DNA of 64,000 nt from the IMG/VR virus record IMGVR_UViG_2870609773_000002, positions 15,181-79,180 of that record; one strand, given 5' to 3'. This DNA comes from a virus. Lineage: Duplodnaviria; Caudoviricetes. Both the position numbers and the translations under genes were made by a program. The notes under the pieces are model-generated. The model was not told the origin of the DNA, did not search any database, and was given only the letters and a program-made list of their open reading frames with translations. Below are positions 3,277-15,363 of this stretch, in pieces. The number at the start of each line of letters is the position of its first letter. Position 1 is the stretch's first letter.

Positions 3277-4278
3277 TCACGCGGTGGGATCGGAAGCGAT
3301 CACCAGAACACCACGACGCCGGACGGCCGACCGGCCCCCGGGCAAGTTCACGGCCTTCTGCCCGTGCCAGTGCGTCACCAACCGGTCCAGGGCCCGCACG
3401 TGAGTGGCCGACAGCACGCCGGACGGGGAGCCCGCGGCGATGGCCGCTCGCCGCAGTACCCGTCGTCTTACCGCGTCGGGAAGCTTCTCAAGCTCGGCCA
3501 CGGCCAGCGTCACCGACTCGCCGAGGTCGCCTCGTACAGAGTGCTGGTAAGCCGAGTCGGCCCACTCGTCGAGCGCGTCGGCGTCTTCCCGCGCGAGCGC
3601 GGCGGTTCGAGCCAGCGCCTCGATCACCCCCGGCCCCAGCTCTTGCTCCAGGAGTGGAAGGATCTTGTGGCGCACTCGGACGCGTGTGTAGCGCGGGTCG
3701 GCGTTGTGTGGGTCGTCCCACAGGTCGAGGTTCTGCGCCCGGCAGGCGGCCACGGTGGTAGCCCTGGGAAGGTGCAGGAGGGGGCGCCGGTAGCGTCCCG
3801 TCGTGGCCGCCATGCCGGACAGGGACCGGGGTCCGCTGCCCCTGGCCAGCCCGAGAAGCACCGTTTCGGCCTGGTCGTCGCGGGTGTGTCCGAGCAGCAC
3901 GGCCTCTGCGCCATGCCGGTCGGCTGCCTCGCTGAGCGCGGCATATCGGGCCTCTCGTGCTGCCGCCTCTGGGCCGCCCTCCCCGCCCACGGTAACGGTG
4001 AGGACTTCCGAGGGGGTGAGGCCGAGGTCCGTGCCCAGGGCTGCCACGGTTTCCGCCCTCTGGCGCGAGCCCTCTTGGAGTTGGTGATCCACGGTCAGCA
4101 GGCCGGCGCGCAAGCGGAGGCGGGGGGCGACGAAGGCCAGTGCTGCGGCCAGGGCCAGCGAGTCGGCCCCGCCGCTGCATGCGGTGAGAATGAGCGCGTC
4201 CTTCTGGACGTCGGCCAGGGCTTCGCGGACGGCTCGGCGGACGTCGGCTACGGCTGGATGCGGACCCACATGTGTCAT
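3277..4278 (-). CDS. tilS: tRNA(Ile)-lysidine synthetase, actinobacterial host type, apparently intact (start may be GTG at 4269)
   Basis: PP-loop [42 protein letters not shown] motifs all present. Confidence 0.93.
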
Positions 4279-7742: not shown

Positions 7743-7804
7743 CTCCGGGCGGCTCGTTGAGTCCCCATGTGTCTATAAAGGTTCCCAACATGTATGCTTC
7801 GGCC

Positions 7805-8290
7805 ATGACGAAACGAGGCCCCCGCGGGCCGGTGCCGATCTACCAGGTGATCATCAAGGCCATCAAGGACGACATCGCCGCCGGCACGCTGAGGCCCGGT
7901 CAAGCCCTGCCCACAGAGGCCGAGATGTGCACCATTCACCAGGCGTCGCGACTGACGGTGCGCAGAGCCCTGGAGGTCCTGCGCGAGGAAGACGTCATCT
8001 ACACCGTTCGCGCCGAAGGGTCCTACGTGGGGCCCCGCGACGCCCCGCAGATCCGCGAGCCGTGGGAGTTCGAGAAGATCGCGTCCGAGTTCGCCGACCG
8101 CATCAAGCGGGGCGACCTCAAGCCGGATGAGGTGCTCCCCTCGCAGTCGGAGCTAATCGAGCAGTACGGCGTGGCCAAGAAGACCGCCCGTGCCGCCATG
8201 GCCTTGCTGCGAGATCAGGGGTGGGTGTACACGGTGCCCACGATCGGAACGTTCGTTGCAAGCCGCGATAAATGGCCTACGGAGAGTTGA
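7805..8290 (+). CDS. GntR-family regulator with two tandem wHTH domains
   Basis: IYQVI...LPTEAEM...SRLTVRRAL...EGSYV and EKIA...LPSQSEL...VAKKTARAAM...IGTFV. Confidence 0.9.
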   Translation: MTKRGPRGPVPIYQVIIKAIKDDIAAGTLRPGQALPTEAEMCTIHQASRLTVRRALEVLREEDVIYTVRAEGSYVGPRDAPQIREPWEFEKIASEFADRIKRGDLKPDEVLPSQSELIEQYGVAKKTARAAMALLRDQGWVYTVPTIGTFVASRDKWPTES

Positions 8291-8370
8291 CCTTAGCGAT
8301 TGCTGAGAATGGCCTCGGCGCGCGATGTAGCCAATAGGTAGACACGGCTGCGTCGCGTGCCACTTTTATG

Positions 8371-8619
8371 TCAGCGACCGGAGCTGACCTGCTCTAACGC
8401 TGCGGCATATATATGCGCAGGGGTCGTGACGCCATTGACACGCGGCCGCCGGCGAGCGATCAGGGCCATCGCCGCGCAGGCCGCCAGGCAAGCGCCTGCC
8501 ATGACGACGATGTCGATACCGCCGAGCCTGTCGGTGAGGACGACGTGGACAACGGCTGCGCCAAACACCAGGTTGCCGACGACGAAGGCCGCCACGAGGG
8601 CCGCCACCGCTCGGTTCAT
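8371..8619 (-). CDS. Small two-TM membrane protein
   Basis: GAGAAAGG RBS before ATG at 8619; two hydrophobic helices, basic tail. Confidence 0.65.
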   Translation of the reverse strand: MNRAVAALVAAFVVGNLVFGAAVVHVVLTDRLGGIDIVVMAGACLAACAAMALIARRRPRVNGVTTPAHIYAAALEQVSSGR

Positions 8620-8915
8620 GTTTCCGCCTTTCTCTCGTGATTGATTGCCAGAGCGTTCTATCATCCCCGTCCGACAAGTGCGCACATCACCCGGGGTGCC
8701 CGCCCGGCCGACGCGTCGGTAACACATCCGTAATCTGGCAAGCTCCCGTGTCATAGAAGTGCCATGTCGCCAAGATGCTGCCCGAAAATGTAGACAATCC
8801 CGCGAGAAAGGACTTTTATGGTCACTCCATGACGTGACGCCTCGGAGTGACAAAAAGTCAACTGGGCGTCCGTATCCCTTGCGTTCGTATCGTTCCAACC
8901 CCTGGGGGTTCCACC

Positions 8916-9107
8916 ATGTCCAAGCTCATGGGAGCGCTCACGCGCCTGACCACGTACGCCATTGCCGTCGCCGCGGCCGGCCTGTTCCTGTCGGCGCCCA
9001 GCGTCGCCTACGCCGACGAGGCCATCCCGGCCGACACTCCGTCCAGCCCTCTCGTAAGCGAGACGCCCGCTGAGTCGGTGCAGTCCATCCACTTCGGCGG
9101 CATGTAG
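8916..9107 (+). CDS. Small secreted pre-peptide (63 aa), candidate signalling peptide
   Basis: Basic N-terminus, hydrophobic core, AYA|D signal-peptidase site; about 30-aa mature part ending SIHFGGM; GGGGG RBS. Confidence 0.7.
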   Translation: MSKLMGALTRLTTYAIAVAAAGLFLSAPSVAYADEAIPADTPSSPLVSETPAESVQSIHFGGM

Positions 9108-9157
9108 TCGCAGCACACGGCCAGGATGACGGTAAGGACCAGCCAGTACGGAGACTC

Positions 9158-9445
9158 ATGATCTGCCACGCCATCCGCATGTGGCTTCTGAACCTGACAG
9201 CGATGTCAGTCACGGCCTGGGCAATGACCGCCTTCGCGTTGTTCATTCTGTACGCGGATAGAGCAAGCGCCGCCGTGTACGCCCTGGTGGGCCTGTGGGC
9301 AGCCGCAGTGCCCATCCCCGTCACCATCACGCTCATCCGATGGTGGCAGCGGGTGCGTGTGGCCCGCAGGGTGCACCGCCTCGCCGAAGAACACAAACGT
9401 TTGTTCGAGACCATGTGTGGGGAGATCAGCTCAGGCGTGCGCTGA
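9158..9445 (+). CDS. Small two-TM membrane protein
   Basis: GGAG RBS; two hydrophobic stretches then basic/helical tail. Confidence 0.6.
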   Translation: MICHAIRMWLLNLTAMSVTAWAMTAFALFILYADRASAAVYALVGLWAAAVPIPVTITLIRWWQRVRVARRVHRLAEEHKRLFETMCGEISSGVR

Positions 9446-9483
9446 CTACTCACAGCCGCGCCATCATCGGGGAAGGAAACGAC

Positions 9484-10437
9484 GTGCCACACCGGATCGC
9501 CGGCCTCAGCCTTGAGCAGGAGCGCCTCTACCGGCACCTGCTCGCCACCGGGCCCACCAGCATCCACGTGTTGGAGGGGCAGTTCGGGCGCGAGGTCTAC
9601 GCGAGCCTGTACGAACTGACCGTCCGAGGCCTCGTGCACGGCAACCCCTTGATGGCGCGGCGCCCCTCGGTCGCCATGAACGGCGTCCTCATGGCGCAGG
9701 CCGCAGAGCTTCAGCGGATCCAGTCGTACGTGGAAGAACTTGATCACATCTACGAGACGGGGCACCCGCCCGAGGGGGGTGACGCGGTAACCCCGCTGGT
9801 GAGCCGTGAGCAGATCCAGCACTGGTTCGAGACGCTGACCGTCACGGCCGAACACGAGATCCAGCAGTTCATCACTCACCCGTTCCTCCCGCTCGCGCCG
9901 TCTGGGAGGACCGATTCAAATTCTCGTTTGGATCTTGTAAACCATCCGGCGAAGTGTCGCGTCATCGTTGAGTGGAAGACCTTCCAGAGCCAGCCCGCCA
10001 TCAACGGCCTGCATCACTCCCTCGACCGAGGGTGCGAAATCAGGCTTGCCGACAGGCTGCCGCACAAGCTGCTGATCGGAGACCGACGCATGGCCATGAC
10101 GCCCCGCTATCCGCGGGACCACACCGTCAGGCAGATGCTGCTCGTGCACCCGGGCACGCTGGTGGACTTCCTCGTCGAGGTCTTCGAGGCCGAATGGGAG
10201 CGGGCTCTCCCGCTCACGCCGGACCCTGCCAAATTCTCCGGCCTCGGCAAGCTGGAGCCCAGTGAGATGGTCATCGTGGAAATGCTGGTCGGCGGCGCAC
10301 ACGTCGATCGCATCGCCAGCGCTCTTGGAGTGCATCCCCGCACGGTCAATCGCAGGCTCGAAGACCTGAAGCGCAAGGCCAACGCCACCACCCTGTTCCA
10401 GCTCGGCGCCTACGCGTCGCGTCACTGGCTGAACTGA
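9484..10437 (+). CDS. TrmB-like wHTH + PLD-like sensor + C-terminal LuxR-type HTH regulator
   Basis: N-terminal LSLEQERLYRHLL HTH, middle EIRLADRLPHKLLIGDRRMAM, C-terminal DRIASALGVHPRTVNRRLEDL...TLFQLG; GGAAGGA RBS. Confidence 0.82.
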   Translation: MPHRIAGLSLEQERLYRHLLATGPTSIHVLEGQFGREVYASLYELTVRGLVHGNPLMARRPSVAMNGVLMAQAAELQRIQSYVEELDHIYETGHPPEGGDAVTPLVSREQIQHWFETLTVTAEHEIQQFITHPFLPLAPSGRTDSNSRLDLVNHPAKCRVIVEWKTFQSQPAINGLHHSLDRGCEIRLADRLPHKLLIGDRRMAMTPRYPRDHTVRQMLLVHPGTLVDFLVEVFEAEWERALPLTPDPAKFSGLGKLEPSEMVIVEMLVGGAHVDRIASALGVHPRTVNRRLEDLKRKANATTLFQLGAYASRHWLN

Positions 10438-10440
10438 GCG

Positions 10441-10965
10441 CTACTCCGGCCGGAAGATCCGAAGCTGAGCTTCTGTCGCGTTCAGGGTCGCCTCGATCTG
10501 GGCCAGCATGATCGTCTCTATCTGGCGGCGCTGGTCGCCTGGAACGCCCTTCAGGCCGCGTATCTGTTGCAGCATCGCCTGAAGTCTTTGCTGCACATGT
10601 TCAGGAGTTACGTCTGCGTCGATCGCCGCCAGTGCGGGGTCCGTCTTGGTCCGCTCGCGGATCCAATCGCGGAACAGTGCGGCCGCCCCAGGCCGGCCGC
10701 GCTCGTACAGGTCGTCCGGGGTGATGGTGGCTTCGTGTGCCAGGTCGGTGATGGCGGCGGCCATGAGTACGAGTTCGCGGTCTTCCGGGACCTTCTCGCC
10801 GGACTCGATGCGTCGCCATGTCGGCTCGGACAACGCGTCGCCGGCCAACTCCTTCGCGCGTGCGGCGGCGGCGCGAGTGGAGATGCGCTTCTTGAGCCCT
10901 CCCGGGTTGTTGCGACGTTCAATGAGGAACTGAACCACTTCTGAAGGCTTGTTGAGGTCGGCCAC
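10441..10965 (-). CDS. XRE-family immunity repressor (candidate)
   Basis: ISTRAAA...LSEPTWRRIESG HTH; divergent from the early lytic operon; AAAGGA RBS. Confidence 0.75.
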   Translation of the reverse strand: MADLNKPSEVVQFLIERRNNPGGLKKRISTRAAAARAKELAGDALSEPTWRRIESGEKVPEDRELVLMAAAITDLAHEATITPDDLYERGRPGAAALFRDWIRERTKTDPALAAIDADVTPEHVQQRLQAMLQQIRGLKGVPGDQRRQIETIMLAQIEATLNATEAQLRIFRPE

Positions 10966-11249
10966 GGCGAGTCAGAGGTCCTTTCGCGGCGTTTGATGCG
11001 TCATACGAGTCTGGCGCAACGGTATCAACTGAAGCGTCGGCTTGGGTTATGTCAGCGCAAAGACGTTGATTACGCTCCGTGACATATGCGAGGTAGCTGC
11101 GATGACGCAGAAGACGCGTCAGACGTTGCATGATGCGTCACGAAGCGATAGTGTCGGTTATGTCGGTCCGATTGTGCACACCCGAAAGGGAAACGCACTG
11201 ACAAAACGCCCGACAAACCAAACCCCAAGCCACGGAGCGTCATATCGCC
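10966..11249. promoter_or_regulatory. Divergent immunity control region with repeated motifs
   Basis: AT-richer; TGATGCGTCA at 10994 and 11131, TGACGCA at 11103, GTTATGTCRG at 11046 and 11157. Confidence 0.7.
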
Positions 11250-11555
11250 ATGCCCAACGGCATCCTCCGCTGGGAAGACCCAGCGCCCGTCAGAACTCGC
11301 ACCAACAAGGAGTACGAGCCTGTAGCCGCCGAACTGCAAGCCCGCCCCAACGAGTGGGCGGTCATCGCAGAGAACCCCGACACCCCCGAAGGCAGGCGTG
11401 ACGCCAACCGCCTGTTCAACGCCGTCAAGAACGGCTACCGAGGCTGGAACAACGACGACGGCGGCACGTTCGAGGCCACCACCCGCACCGTCACCAAGAA
11501 CGGCGGAGCCAAGGTCATCCTCGTTCACGTGCAGTACGTCCCCGCCAGCTCATAG
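11250..11555 (+). CDS. First early-operon protein, probable small DNA-binding protein
   Basis: YEPVAAELQARPNEWAVI motif recalled from actinophage small proteins. Confidence 0.65.
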   Translation: MPNGILRWEDPAPVRTRTNKEYEPVAAELQARPNEWAVIAENPDTPEGRRDANRLFNAVKNGYRGWNNDDGGTFEATTRTVTKNGGAKVILVHVQYVPASS

Positions 11556-11778: not shown

Positions 11779-11978
11779 CCCCACCGAGCCCCGCGCTCCC
11801 AACCGAAGCGGAGCTGACCGACTACCTCGTCGCTCTCAAGACCGACAACCCTCAGTCCACGCCGAGCCGGCCAAGCTACCGCGGCGGGCCCGTGCTCGAC
11901 CCGATGACCGAGGACGAGTACCGGTTCGGCTGGTTCGGCCAGGCCGACTATGACGGGCACCTCGGCGGTGGCGCGTGA
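11775..11978 (+). CDS. Hypothetical protein
   Basis: GAGGA RBS, overlapping neighbours. Confidence 0.6.
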   Translation: MTPPSPALPTEAELTDYLVALKTDNPQSTPSRPSYRGGPVLDPMTEDEYRFGWFGQADYDGHLGGGA

Positions 11979-12952
11979 GCATCACGATTCGCGAGGACGA
12001 GCGCGACGAGTACGACCCGAGCCACGCCGTACCGACCAGCGCGGGCCGCTACTACTGCGACCCCATGCTGGGCCCGGACGACCCGCACCGGATGAAGATC
12101 TCCGTCACCAACGCCATCGACCAGCACATGATCGAGGCGCTGGCCCCGGCCGCCGCGCGGGACACCGCGATCTGGCTGATGGACAACCTCCCCGACGCGA
12201 TCCGCGCGGCCGGCGACCCAGACGACATGGAAGCGTTCATCAAGCTGGCCAAGGCGCAGTACCGGGTCCAGTGGGACAAGAAGGCCGACCTCGGAAGCCG
12301 TGTCCATAACATCGGCGAAGCGATCAACCTCGGCAAGGCGTACATCCCCGACGAGGAAGCCGAACCGTTCGTCGAGTCCTACCGACAGTTCCTGGCCGAC
12401 TTCGGGGTGGACATCCGCCGCGACATCATGACGGCGGAGTGCACGGTGCTCAACCGCACGATCCCGTACGGCGGGACGAGCGACATCTGGGTCCGCTTGC
12501 AATTCCCCGGCCCGACGTCGCCGATCATGCCGAAGTTCAAGCCTCGCGCGGTTCCGGCCGCCCCGCTTCCGACGCCGTCCGGGCTGTGGCTCGTGGACAT
12601 CAAGACGAGCCTCACCAAGCCGGCCAGCGCCGTCTACGAGGACCACGTGATGCAGCTCGCCGCTCTGCGGCACGCGGAAGTCGCGCTCATCTGCCCGCCC
12701 GAGTGCAGGTACGGCGAGAGCGACAACCACGACGCCAGCCACGAGTTCCCCGTCCCGGAGTTCGTCGGCACGGCGATTCTCAACCTCCGCACGAACGGCT
12801 ACGGGTTCGTGCCGCTCCCGGCCGACCAGGACGCGTTCACCGCGTTCTGCGGGCTGCTCCCGCTCGCGCACTACGTCCACGGGCTCGAAATGCGCGGCTT
12901 CAAGCCCATCCAGCCCCCGAGCAAGACCACCACCAGGAAGGACGCCGCCTGA
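11975..12952 (+). CDS. PD-(D/E)XK exonuclease (RecE/RecB-like)
   Basis: SVTNAI, ADLGSRVH, AECTV, YGGTSDI, LVDIKTS, MQLAAL motifs. Confidence 0.85.
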   Translation: MSITIREDERDEYDPSHAVPTSAGRYYCDPMLGPDDPHRMKISVTNAIDQHMIEALAPAAARDTAIWLMDNLPDAIRAAGDPDDMEAFIKLAKAQYRVQWDKKADLGSRVHNIGEAINLGKAYIPDEEAEPFVESYRQFLADFGVDIRRDIMTAECTVLNRTIPYGGTSDIWVRLQFPGPTSPIMPKFKPRAVPAAPLPTPSGLWLVDIKTSLTKPASAVYEDHVMQLAALRHAEVALICPPECRYGESDNHDASHEFPVPEFVGTAILNLRTNGYGFVPLPADQDAFTAFCGLLPLAHYVHGLEMRGFKPIQPPSKTTTRKDAA

Positions 12953-14631
12953 TGCCCATCGACCCCTCCGTACTGCAGCGCCGCCACTGGCAGGACGGCC
13001 GGATCCGTCTCGGCATCAAGAAGATGAGCCGGAACGGCAAGGAGTACCCCAGCAAGATCGACACCTTCCGGTTCACGTCGCCGTCCGAGGACATGATCCG
13101 AGGCGTCGCCGAGAAGTACGGCGGCGAGGTCAAACCGTGGAAGTCGCCGCAGGGCCCGCAGTTCGAGGTCATCACCAACGCGCAGCGCATCCCCGTCATC
13201 GTCCCGCCCAACGGCCTGAGCCAGAACATGGAGCTCTGGGACGGCAAGCTCTGCATCCGTCGCTGCACCGGCATCGCGATGCAGGCCCCGTTCGTCGGCC
13301 CGTGCCTGTGTGGGGCGGACGTCGAGCTCAAGAAGCGGCCGTGCAAGCCGCACACCCGACTCGGTGTCTTTCTAAAGGAAGTGCCCAGCTTGGGCCTGTG
13401 GCGGCTCGACAGCAAGGGCGGCAACGCCGCGGCCGAGCTGCCCAACGCCGCCGAGTTCCTGGCCCACGCGGGGACGTACGTGGACGCCTGGCTGTACGTG
13501 GCCGAACGCACCGGCTCGTTCCTCGACCCGAAGGACAACGTGGTCAAGGCCACCACGTACATGGTGCCCGGCCTGACGATCGAAGGCATCGGCTTCGACG
13601 AGCTGATGTCGGGCGAAGTCGCCCGCCGCGCCGAGCTGGGCCGCGGCGGTGAGAGCCAGCGGGCGATCGAGGCCGCGCCCGCGACCGACTACCTCGCGAT
13701 GATCGAGGCGGCCCCAGACCGAGACGCGGTCGTGGCCATCTGGAGGACGTCCAAGCTCGACCCCGCTTGGCAAGGGCGGGGCGAGGAAGTGGAGGCGGCG
13801 GCCAAGGCACGCGTTGCGAAGTTCCCCCCGGAGCAGGGCAAGGGCGCACCGCAGGGCCAGTCCGCCCCGGAGGGCACGCAGCCCAACGAGCACACGCACG
13901 AGGACGCCCCTTCGGACACCCCGCCGCCGGGCGACCCCGAAGCGGATCGGATCCGGCAGCACATCATGACCGCGTGGTCCGGCACGACGAGCCAGCTCCA
14001 CACCGCGTTCCGCGACCGCACCAGCACCACCATGAAGGCCGCGACCCTGCAGCAGCTCCAAGAGTTCGCCGACCAGCTCGGCCAGCCCGCCGCAGGCGCC
14101 ATCGCGGACGAACCCCGCAAGGCGTCCGAGCGCGCCGAAGCGCTCCTCGAGGCCGCCCGCGCGCAGAACACCGCGGCGGCGGCCGACGACGACATCGTGG
14201 ACGGGGAGGTCGTCGAGGACGAGGAGCAGCCGAAGCCCACCGCCAAGGCGCTGCGCGACCTCGGAGTGTGGTTCGGCGAGGCCGGCGTCACCATCCACAC
14301 CGGCAAGGGTTCGGCCGCGAAGAACGACGAGGCGCGGTTCGCCTGGATTGTCGAGCACCTGGGTGTCGATGTGACCTCGACGAAGGACCTCAGCGCCGAG
14401 CGGGTGGACACCGGGGTCAAGCTGCTCATGCAGCAGGCCGCCGCCCGCCGGAAGGACCTGCAGCAGCGCATCGTCAACGTCTGGTCCGACCTGGACGGCA
14501 ACAACCAGCAGCTCTCCGCCGCGTTCGAGCAGCACATGGAGAAGCCGGTCGGCGAGGCCACCAACGCCGACCTCGCCGCGTTCCTGCAGAAGCTCAGCAA
14601 CAGCGAGGTCACCCCTGGCGGTGGTCAGTGA
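12952..14631 (+). CDS. Gp3-like (recombination-directionality-factor-like) protein with long C-terminal extension
   Basis: GRIRLG, PSKIDTFRFTS, CKPHTRL, GLWRLDSKG-NAAAELP; coupled to the exonuclease. Confidence 0.7.
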   Translation: MPIDPSVLQRRHWQDGRIRLGIKKMSRNGKEYPSKIDTFRFTSPSEDMIRGVAEKYGGEVKPWKSPQGPQFEVITNAQRIPVIVPPNGLSQNMELWDGKLCIRRCTGIAMQAPFVGPCLCGADVELKKRPCKPHTRLGVFLKEVPSLGLWRLDSKGGNAAAELPNAAEFLAHAGTYVDAWLYVAERTGSFLDPKDNVVKATTYMVPGLTIEGIGFDELMSGEVARRAELGRGGESQRAIEAAPATDYLAMIEAAPDRDAVVAIWRTSKLDPAWQGRGEEVEAAAKARVAKFPPEQGKGAPQGQSAPEGTQPNEHTHEDAPSDTPPPGDPEADRIRQHIMTAWSGTTSQLHTAFRDRTSTTMKAATLQQLQEFADQLGQPAAGAIADEPRKASERAEALLEAARAQNTAAAADDDIVDGEVVEDEEQPKPTAKALRDLGVWFGEAGVTIHTGKGSAAKNDEARFAWIVEHLGVDVTSTKDLSAERVDTGVKLLMQQAAARRKDLQQRIVNVWSDLDGNNQQLSAAFEQHMEKPVGEATNADLAAFLQKLSNSEVTPGGGQ

Positions 14632-15108: not shown

Positions 15109-15363
15109 ATGAAGTCCATCACCGTCGAGTACGACGACGTCACCCCCGCCACGATCGAGCACCGGCTGGCCGCCGAGGAGACCGTCCTCGCGATGGGCAG
15201 CCGCCGCTACCCCGCCGCCCTGAACGACCGGGCCGCCCTGCTGGAGGCCCTCCAGATCGCTGACCGGCTGTCCGCCGCCGTCGTCGGCTGGCGCGGCGAC
15301 ATCGTGGCCGCGCTGCAGAAGCTCGACAACGACCAGTACGCCCGCGAGAACGCCACCACCTGA
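15109..15363 (+). CDS. Hypothetical protein
   Basis: AAGGAG RBS, ATG at 15109. Confidence 0.7.
   Translation: MKSITVEYDDVTPATIEHRLAAEETVLAMGSRRYPAALNDRAALLEALQIADRLSAAVVGWRGDIVAALQKLDNDQYARENATT

Follow-up and report, generated by a model that had tools for sequence, protein, structure and literature searches.

A candidate peptide-signalling module in the immunity region of a temperate phage of Actinomycetota

To our knowledge, peptide-guided lysis/lysogeny decisions are known only from phages of Bacillota, where they depend on RRNPP receptors. The best described case is arbitrium, the AimP-AimR-AimX system of Bacillus SPbeta-like phages, and the same receptor family serves mobile elements such as ICEBs1, in which RapI-PhrI acts on the repressor ImmR. 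Actinomycetota are thought to signal with small molecules. Here we describe a locus in a 64,000-nt stretch of DNA (positions 15,181 to 79,180 of IMG/VR record IMGVR_UViG_2870609773_000002; the whole stretch is called the window below) from a temperate siphophage of a Nonomuraea-like actinomycete. The locus holds four genes, encoding a secreted pre-peptide, a small membrane protein with two hydrophobic spans (tm2), a transcriptional regulator and an XRE-like protein. A first-pass annotation, made from the letters of the window, had pointed to it as a possible peptide-signalling module. Comparison with related loci supports the four genes as a real, deeply conserved functional unit. Our tentative reading, to which we give close to but below an even chance, is that these co-inherited genes form a phage peptide-signalling circuit acting on the lysis/lysogeny region.

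The pre-peptide is the part that resembles arbitrium most closely. The 63-aa product with signal peptide, acidic spacer and SIHFGGM end that had first been reported is present in the window (Table 1). It shows an n-region with Lys/Arg, a hydrophobic core, A-Y-A followed by D-E, a 23-residue acidic/Pro/Ser spacer and then S-I-H-F-G-G-M directly before the stop. Its ribosome-binding site (RBS) is GGGGG, 7 nt upstream, and an alternative ATG at 8928 would yield a product of 59 aa. The check that the first-pass annotation had suggested, looking for small secreted open reading frames (ORFs) beside homologous regulators, showed that each of 20 close loci, whose regulators are 52-98% identical, has an ORF at the syntenic position that encodes a signal peptide and ends in H-x-[G/A]-G-M. 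The signal peptide is of the typical Sec kind with an A-x-A-type site in 20/20. Pre-proteins range from ~60 to 145 aa, and their mature parts, ~30 to >100 residues long, are unalignable between loci. The tail, in all 20, stands directly before the stop codon. At the codon level, His and Met are fixed, Gly, Thr and Phe vary synonymously, and TAG, TAA and TGA all serve as stop; selection therefore acts on the peptide and not on a DNA or RNA element. No ORF ending in G-G-M was found in any frame of ~80 control loci, so the tail exceeds chance.

Within this fixed frame, the tail varies. F, M, T, V and A are all found at position x, and variation extends to the two residues preceding His. The nearest relatives beyond a 98%-identical pair end in N-S-H-T-G-G-M and N-A-H-M-G-G-M, as against S-I-H-F-G-G-M in the window, and x switches several times within well-supported clades of close relatives in the regulator tree. 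Such variation among close relatives suggests pherotypes. When 401 genomes of the order were searched by profile, and one more look-up was made, distant modules came to light whose regulators are 27-36% identical. The tail and the Sec signal occur in every module found (~35 loci), always with the peptide gene within ~0.4 kb of the regulator. Tails of the distant modules (H-T-G-G-W, H-M-G-G-W, D-[A/S/T]-G-G-W, [N/D]-[E/Q]-G-G-W and [T/S]-T-G-G-M) fit [H/D/N/T/S]-x-G-G-[M/W]; G-S-G-W and G-G-G-V are the two departures from it. Across the family, then, the tail amounts to x-G-G and a single hydrophobic residue at a free C-terminus. Two modules coexist in each of two genomes, where they belong to different clades and differ in their tails: D-S-G-G-W and S-T-G-G-M in G392 (L153 and L173), D-A-G-G-W and G-G-G-V in G191 (L154 and L174).

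These features support the view that the secreted protein behaves like a pro-peptide with the C-terminal tail as its functional part. It looks like one because only the free C-terminus is under selection, because specificity positions differ between close relatives, because the gene is locked to a transcription factor with a ligand domain and because, within a phage immunity region, the unit has a repressor-like gene as its neighbour. The order of secreted peptide and then small membrane protein also resembles class II bacteriocin loci, which would make the product a Sec-dependent bacteriocin-like toxic peptide and tm2 its immunity protein. We consider this very improbable: the mature part is acidic to neutral and Pro/Ser/Thr-rich, is neither cationic nor amphipathic, cannot be aligned outside its last 5-7 residues, and comes with no double-glycine leader, exporter or modification genes.

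Several other classes were ruled out for the peptide gene. It has no lipobox Cys (lipoprotein), no twin-Arg motif (Tat export) and no transmembrane (TM) segment or LPXTG motif after the tail (GlyGly-CTERM or sortase signal). A Pup-like tag, which is disordered, ~64 aa long and ends in G-G-Q, was rejected given the clear Sec signal, which places the protein extracellularly, and a precursor of a ribosomally synthesized and post-translationally modified peptide was rejected given the lack of modification genes. Antisense ORFs over the gene are not conserved, because the spacer is rich in indels. Separately, a Thr-rich internal motif of approximately T-x-T-V-T-N-P-D-G-S-K-[V/T]-I-T-K-T occurs in longer secreted homologues (L016, L136, L137, L141, L151-L163, L173 and L174) and is absent from the window's short version.

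The regulator is unlike the receptors of Bacillota phages. It consists of a TrmB-type winged helix-turn-helix (wHTH; residues ~1-60), a coiled-coil helix (61-93), a PLD-like domain (~100-245) and a LuxR/GerE helix-turn-helix (HTH; 255-317). The single sequence gave only a sub-threshold GerE match in Pfam (E 6.6e-4; 19.7 against a cut-off of 23.5 bits). A family profile built from 135 relatives matched TrmBL2 in the PDB over residues 4-248 (5box, E 9e-19) and NarL/GerE HTH domains at 255-322 (NarL 1je8, E 6e-11). Foldseek placed TrmBL2/TrmB first for the AlphaFold2 (AF2) model (predicted local distance difference test, pLDDT, 88.6), followed by the PLD-fold proteins Nuc, Zucchini and F13; residues 255-317 are modelled as a four-helix LuxR/GerE HTH in place of the C-terminal beta-barrel sugar-binding subdomain of TrmB. 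More distant relatives match TrmB, DUF7436 and GerE in Pfam, and the distant chromosomal family numbers ~6000. Profile and structure comparison thus confirm the TrmB-wHTH/PLD-like/LuxR-HTH architecture first proposed. The PLD motif is degenerate, reading P-H-K-L-L-I-G-D and not H-x-K-x4-D, with the His adjoining the Lys and the spacing shifted; relatives have F, Y, T, L or M immediately ahead of the motif Lys. The domain is therefore a pseudo-enzyme like that of TrmB. No TPR was found by Pfam, PDB profile, AF2 model or Foldseek, so the protein is not an RRNPP receptor, as the first-pass annotation had held. Regulators of the modules share residues without counterpart in non-module relatives, namely G53, P55 and R59 in the wing and L105, T131, F134, L137, G175 and R211 in the PLD-like domain.

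Downstream of the regulator, and facing it, lies the XRE-like gene. The stop codons of the two are 3 bp apart in the window. The XRE-like protein matches HTH_31 in Pfam (E 0.006) and gave no match in the PDB profile search; its AF2 model is all-helical, with weak best Foldseek matches to EspR, lambda cI and ClgR (E 0.15-0.5). Of the XRE repressor said to converge with the regulator, then, the gene and the convergence are there, but these matches do little to back the word repressor. By hidden Markov model (HMM) searches, an XRE-like gene adjoins the regulator in all module loci but L161, and none stands beside the lower-scoring chromosomal paralogues of the regulator. By this comparison, the XRE-like gene belongs to the unit.

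The unit as a whole is conserved in order and content. In all 18 loci of the close set whose flanks were compared with those of the window, peptide, tm2 and regulator genes converge on the XRE-like gene, and early exonuclease and Gp3-like genes follow. Sixteen of these 18 have the tandem GntR gene upstream, and of the remaining two one is cut at a contig end. L146 has the four genes as in the window. Distant modules retain the peptide, the regulator and the XRE-like gene even when rearranged, with a tm2-like gene where one is recognisable. In the clade with T-T-G-G-M tails, the order has become XRE-like (same strand), peptide, regulator and tm2-like, with the four genes still together. Neither peptide nor tm2 was seen beside distant chromosomal regulator relatives in the loci inspected, and 52 distant regulator-family loci gave no convincing Trp-tailed secreted peptide, with two weak matches only. 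This conservation pattern argues for a four-gene functional unit in the phage immunity region. It disfavours the alternative raised at first, a host-type cassette captured as a moron: the unit is in every examined relative of the phage lineage, it is kept after rearrangement, and its partner genes are absent beside chromosomal paralogues.

Co-inheritance also bears on a further explanation. If the unit were a cassette for lysogenic conversion or superinfection exclusion, tm2 and the secreted protein would act at the surface, by receptor masking or a block to DNA entry, and the regulator and XRE-like protein would only control expression. Small membrane or secreted proteins of immunity regions are often exclusion factors, another two-TM protein (tm1) adjoins the unit, and defence genes (HEPN/Toprim, type I methylase) lie near the modules of some relatives. 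Even so, we find such a cassette quite unlikely. A surface effector should conserve more than five terminal residues, whereas the spacers here are unalignable, and it is atypical of exclusion genes to be co-inherited so tightly, in a set of four that includes two transcription factors and holds together even when rearranged.

The upstream neighbours of the unit appear to be separate from it. The tandem GntR gene is as first described, with two GntR stretches (E 4.9e-28, Pfam). Both of the small two-TM proteins that had been assigned to the module are present, but tm1 follows the GntR gene and stays beside it where insertions part GntR from the peptide (L011-L013 and L134). We conclude that tm1 is probably not part of the unit. 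In some relatives (L132:1703-2763, L136:1609-2675 and L141:1728-2758), an inserted XRE(HTH_31/DUF5753)-DUF397 pair of WhiJ/BldB-like type separates the GntR gene from tm1; elsewhere among chromosomal relatives, HEPN/Toprim or type I methylase genes are found immediately upstream.

We also compared the non-coding parts of the locus. The region ahead of the peptide gene contains blocks common to ~15 loci, including a TAGACA-N17-TTTTATGGTCAC block, inverted repeats (GTCAC/GTGAC at 8819-8851 in the window), a palindrome and a TTCGTAYCGTTCCAA block. The palindrome noted upstream of the peptide, TGAC-AAAAA-GTCA, is indeed found at 8848-8860; among relatives, the arms TGAC(A)...(T)GTCA are kept and the spacer runs from 5 nt in the window's clade to ~16 nt. 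A consensus sigma-70 scan of 8250-11350 returned no promoter, and it is solely its conservation that marks the TAGACA-N17-TTTTAT block as a candidate promoter. The stretch separating the XRE-like gene from the divergent early genes contains TGACGCA/ACGCGTC half-sites in 2-6 copies per locus, with at least three in most (window region and 18 related loci). They form a candidate operator array, constant while the XRE-like protein diverges to ~50% identity. At the other end of that gene, the called regulator and XRE-like genes either abut or share up to 24 nt, and a scan predicted no terminator at the junction in the window; convergent transcripts should therefore overlap. An Rfam scan of 8300-11300 gave no credible match.

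From the observed gene content, architecture, conservation, tail motif and pherotype-like variation, we infer how the peptide may be processed, which partner may sense it, which promoters may be the targets and how lysis or lysogeny may be affected. The pre-peptide would be exported by Sec and its signal peptide cut off after A-Y-A, and the disordered pro-region would be trimmed extracellularly to leave a short C-terminal peptide ending in H-F-G-G-M. The more hyphae are infected or lysogenic, the higher the level of this peptide would become. Sensing could follow either of two routes. In the first, the peptide would be taken up via a host oligopeptide permease and would meet the PLD-like domain of the TrmB/LuxR regulator; in Streptomyces, an extracellular signalling oligopeptide is imported via the BldK permease. 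In the second, tm2 would sense it at the membrane, and the conserved cytoplasmic tail of tm2 would hold or release the regulator. The regulator may then act on its own operon, altering transcription from the conserved promoter/inverted-repeat region, and the operon transcript, lacking a terminator, would enter the 3' end of the convergent XRE-like gene and shift the balance between repressor-like and early genes.

The two possible sensors, tm2 and the PLD-like domain, are equally plausible. The short outer loop of tm2 (~9 residues) varies, its Arg-rich cytoplasmic tail is conserved, and W21, W47, T56 and H79 are invariant. All close modules contain it, and in several distant ones a tm2-like gene can be made out. 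It falls in no Pfam or PHROG family, and only eight clusters among 5.8 billion proteins match it, all from these elements; look-alikes in the Atlas, none of which reached 0.9, were disregarded. Co-variation of the tail with a sensor domain, which the first-pass annotation had proposed to look for, was assessed in two ways. Partial Mantel tests on 18 loci, controlling for the divergence of the other proteins (16 tests, on related sequences), associated the tail with the PLD-like domain under both tail measures (permutation p ~0.02), with the wHTH for the whole 7-residue tail (p 0.007) and with the LuxR HTH for position x (p 0.013). The tail was unlinked in these tests to the TM part, loop or tail of tm2 and to the XRE-like protein. 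Per-column mutual information between x and the columns of the regulator, tm2 and the XRE-like protein was the second measure, and its outcome is taken up with the other difficulties below.

The membrane protein also underlies an explanation in which nothing is communicated between cells. The secreted protein would act on the producer's own tm2, a membrane-tethered anti-regulator of the TrmB/LuxR protein, and the pair would work as a cis-acting sensor of envelope or physiology. Such a circuit would report extracellular protease activity, secretion or cell-wall state and so time induction or the lysogeny decision. Co-inheritance of tm2 in all close modules, its conserved cytoplasmic tail and its lack of relatives beyond the module fit this idea; so do the invariance of G-G-[M/W] over divergent modules, as expected of a docking tail, and the conserved internal motif of the long secreted homologues. 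The outer loop of tm2, by comparison, offers only ~9 variable residues with no association with the tail, and pherotype-like variation of x, together with the differing tails of co-resident modules, suggests selection for private signals. Both the cis-acting sensor and the outputs proposed for it strike us as unlikely.

Several points weigh against the peptide-signalling circuit and are gathered here. The peak of mutual information between x and the regulator, at residue 232, was no better than that of an unrelated GntR control. The Mantel signal pointing to the regulator is only a hint, because 16 tests were made and kinship confounds them. The always-present tm2 has no counterpart in arbitrium or RRNPP systems and possibly reflects a different, cis-acting logic. 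G-G-[M/W] is strictly invariant across very divergent regulators, and a conserved host factor could be what reads the tail. The pro-region of the longer homologues may have a function of its own, which would make the secreted protein more than a tail carrier. That the XRE-like protein serves as master repressor is a supposition drawn from its position, strand and weak fold similarity. Lastly, in the 98%-identical module of Nonomuraea sp. NPDC050202, tm2 is frameshifted (L009:5674-5960), with residues 1-56 and 55-95 in different frames, and the peptide, regulator and XRE-like genes are intact despite the split; the frameshift could be a sequencing error or a natural loss of tm2. It is because tm2 is obligatory, longer homologues share an internal Thr-rich motif and G-G-[M/W] is invariant that we keep the peptide-signalling circuit below even odds. 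A cis-acting membrane switch, a tail-reading host factor or a surface function could each be reconciled with those three features.

The wider setting of the unit is that of a phage. The window corresponds to G000:C2:15318-79317, where C2 is a separate contig of 96,733 bp with 67.9% G+C, lower than the 71.5% of the 12.78-Mb chromosome beside it. Matches to phage structural and recombinase genes (Table 1) place the module in a temperate siphophage, which lies apart from the chromosome in the assembly. The final 61 nt of the contig (G000:C2:96673-96733) match the chromosome at G000:C1:7753957-7754015 with 97% identity, which may mark an attP/attB core or a shared gene end, and no terminal repeat common to both ends of C2 was found within 3 kb. 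The phage also encodes a complete TilS, with PP-loop and TilS substrate-binding domains (3277-4278, minus strand).

Table 1. Positions in the window of the module, its flanking regions and phage genes
Feature	Position	Strand	Description
Tandem GntR-wHTH protein	7790-8290	+	166 aa; upstream neighbour
tm1	8371-8619	-	82 aa; two hydrophobic spans
Peptide-operon control region	8620-8915		TAGACA-N17-TTTTATGGTCAC block, inverted repeats, palindrome, TTCGTAYCGTTCCAA block before RBS
Pre-pro-peptide gene	8916-9107	+	63 aa; ORF; Sec signal peptide, variable spacer, C-terminal tail
tm2	9158-9445	+	95 aa; two hydrophobic spans, Arg-rich C-terminal tail
Regulator	9484-10437	+	317 aa; GTG start
XRE-like helical DNA-binding protein (putative)	10441-10965	-	174 aa; tail-to-tail with regulator
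Divergent region, XRE-like gene/early genes	10966-11249		Repeated TGACGCA / ACGCGTC half-sites
Exonuclease	11975-12952		PHROG match; ahead of Gp3-like gene
Gp3-like early protein	12952-14631	+	559 aa; Pfam; Gp3-like (recombination directionality factor-like) domain N-terminal; in all relatives
Tyrosine recombinase	30836		Pfam match
Large terminase	36185		PHROG match
Portal	41011		PHROG match
Major capsid	45617		PHROG match
Tape measure	50803		PHROG match
Head morphogenesis protein and tail proteins			PHROG matches

Relatives of the module are hosted by prophages and phage-plasmids of Streptosporangiaceae. The closest regulator relative is that of Nonomuraea sp. NPDC050202 (98% identical), and others come from Nonomuraea, Thermocatellispora, Sphaerisporangium, Sphaerimonospora, Planotetraspora, Microtetraspora, Microbispora and Streptosporangium. 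Several related loci are carried on contigs of 84-104 kb, one of the carriers is deposited as a plasmid, and others lie within chromosomes. We found no close relative in the phage database (DNA and protein) or in IMG/VR, and metagenome contigs gave distant chromosomal-type relatives only. None of the products of the four genes, nor tm1, matched a PHROG. No published description of such a module was found in the literature on TrmB/LuxR regulators, DUF7436 or peptide communication in Actinobacteria and phages.

In its most complete form, our proposal is that temperate phages and phage-plasmids of Streptosporangiaceae process a pro-peptide into an x-G-G-M/W signal, private to each phage, which would be read by the TrmB/PLD-like/LuxR regulator with its two-TM partner and would balance the convergent XRE-like repressor. 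We hold this full version as a possibility appreciably short of even. If true, phage communication would have arisen independently in Actinomycetota from unrelated parts, as an analogue of arbitrium without homologous components. It would also supply a first ligand class for the large TrmB/DUF7436/LuxR regulator family, along with peptide/receptor pairs that are orthogonal by nature. Because genomes reveal the candidate signals, which can then be synthesised, the reading is directly testable.

Known systems resemble the module in different parts. TrmB and TrmBL2, an archaeal sugar-sensing regulator family and chromatin protein, share with its regulator the N-terminal wHTH, the long dimerisation helix and the PLD-like effector subdomain. 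They differ in that the regulator has a LuxR/GerE HTH where they have the sugar-binding beta-barrel, belongs to a phage of an actinomycete and has a peptide, not a sugar, as its proposed ligand. VqmA of vibriophage VP882 and other LuxR-type receptors offer a parallel in that a phage transcription factor with a LuxR-type HTH could couple the lysis decision to an extracellular signal. However, VqmA senses the host-made molecule 3,5-dimethylpyrazin-2-ol (DPO) via a PAS domain and overlaps the regulator only in the HTH by Foldseek, whereas the candidate signal here is a peptide encoded by the phage. RRNPP systems on mobile elements, such as RapI-PhrI acting on ImmR of ICEBs1, likewise join a secreted pro-peptide with a C-terminal oligopeptide to a circuit with an XRE-type repressor; the module has neither a TPR receptor nor an ImmA-like protease, and it has a membrane partner.

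Arbitrium is the nearest in logic. In both, a phage encodes a Sec pre-pro-peptide with a short conserved C-terminal part and variable specificity positions, the peptide gene adjoins a transcription factor in the lysis/lysogeny region, and tails differ between phages. Arbitrium reads its peptide with an HTH and TPR receptor, in contrast to the TrmB-wHTH/PLD-like/LuxR-HTH protein that is the candidate receptor here. The module also differs in its peptide-first gene order, its obligatory two-TM and XRE-like partners, its lack of an aimX-like element and its hosts in the phylum Actinomycetota. Known here from sequence alone, the module matches arbitrium and Phr systems in its logic and is built from parts that are not homologous to theirs.

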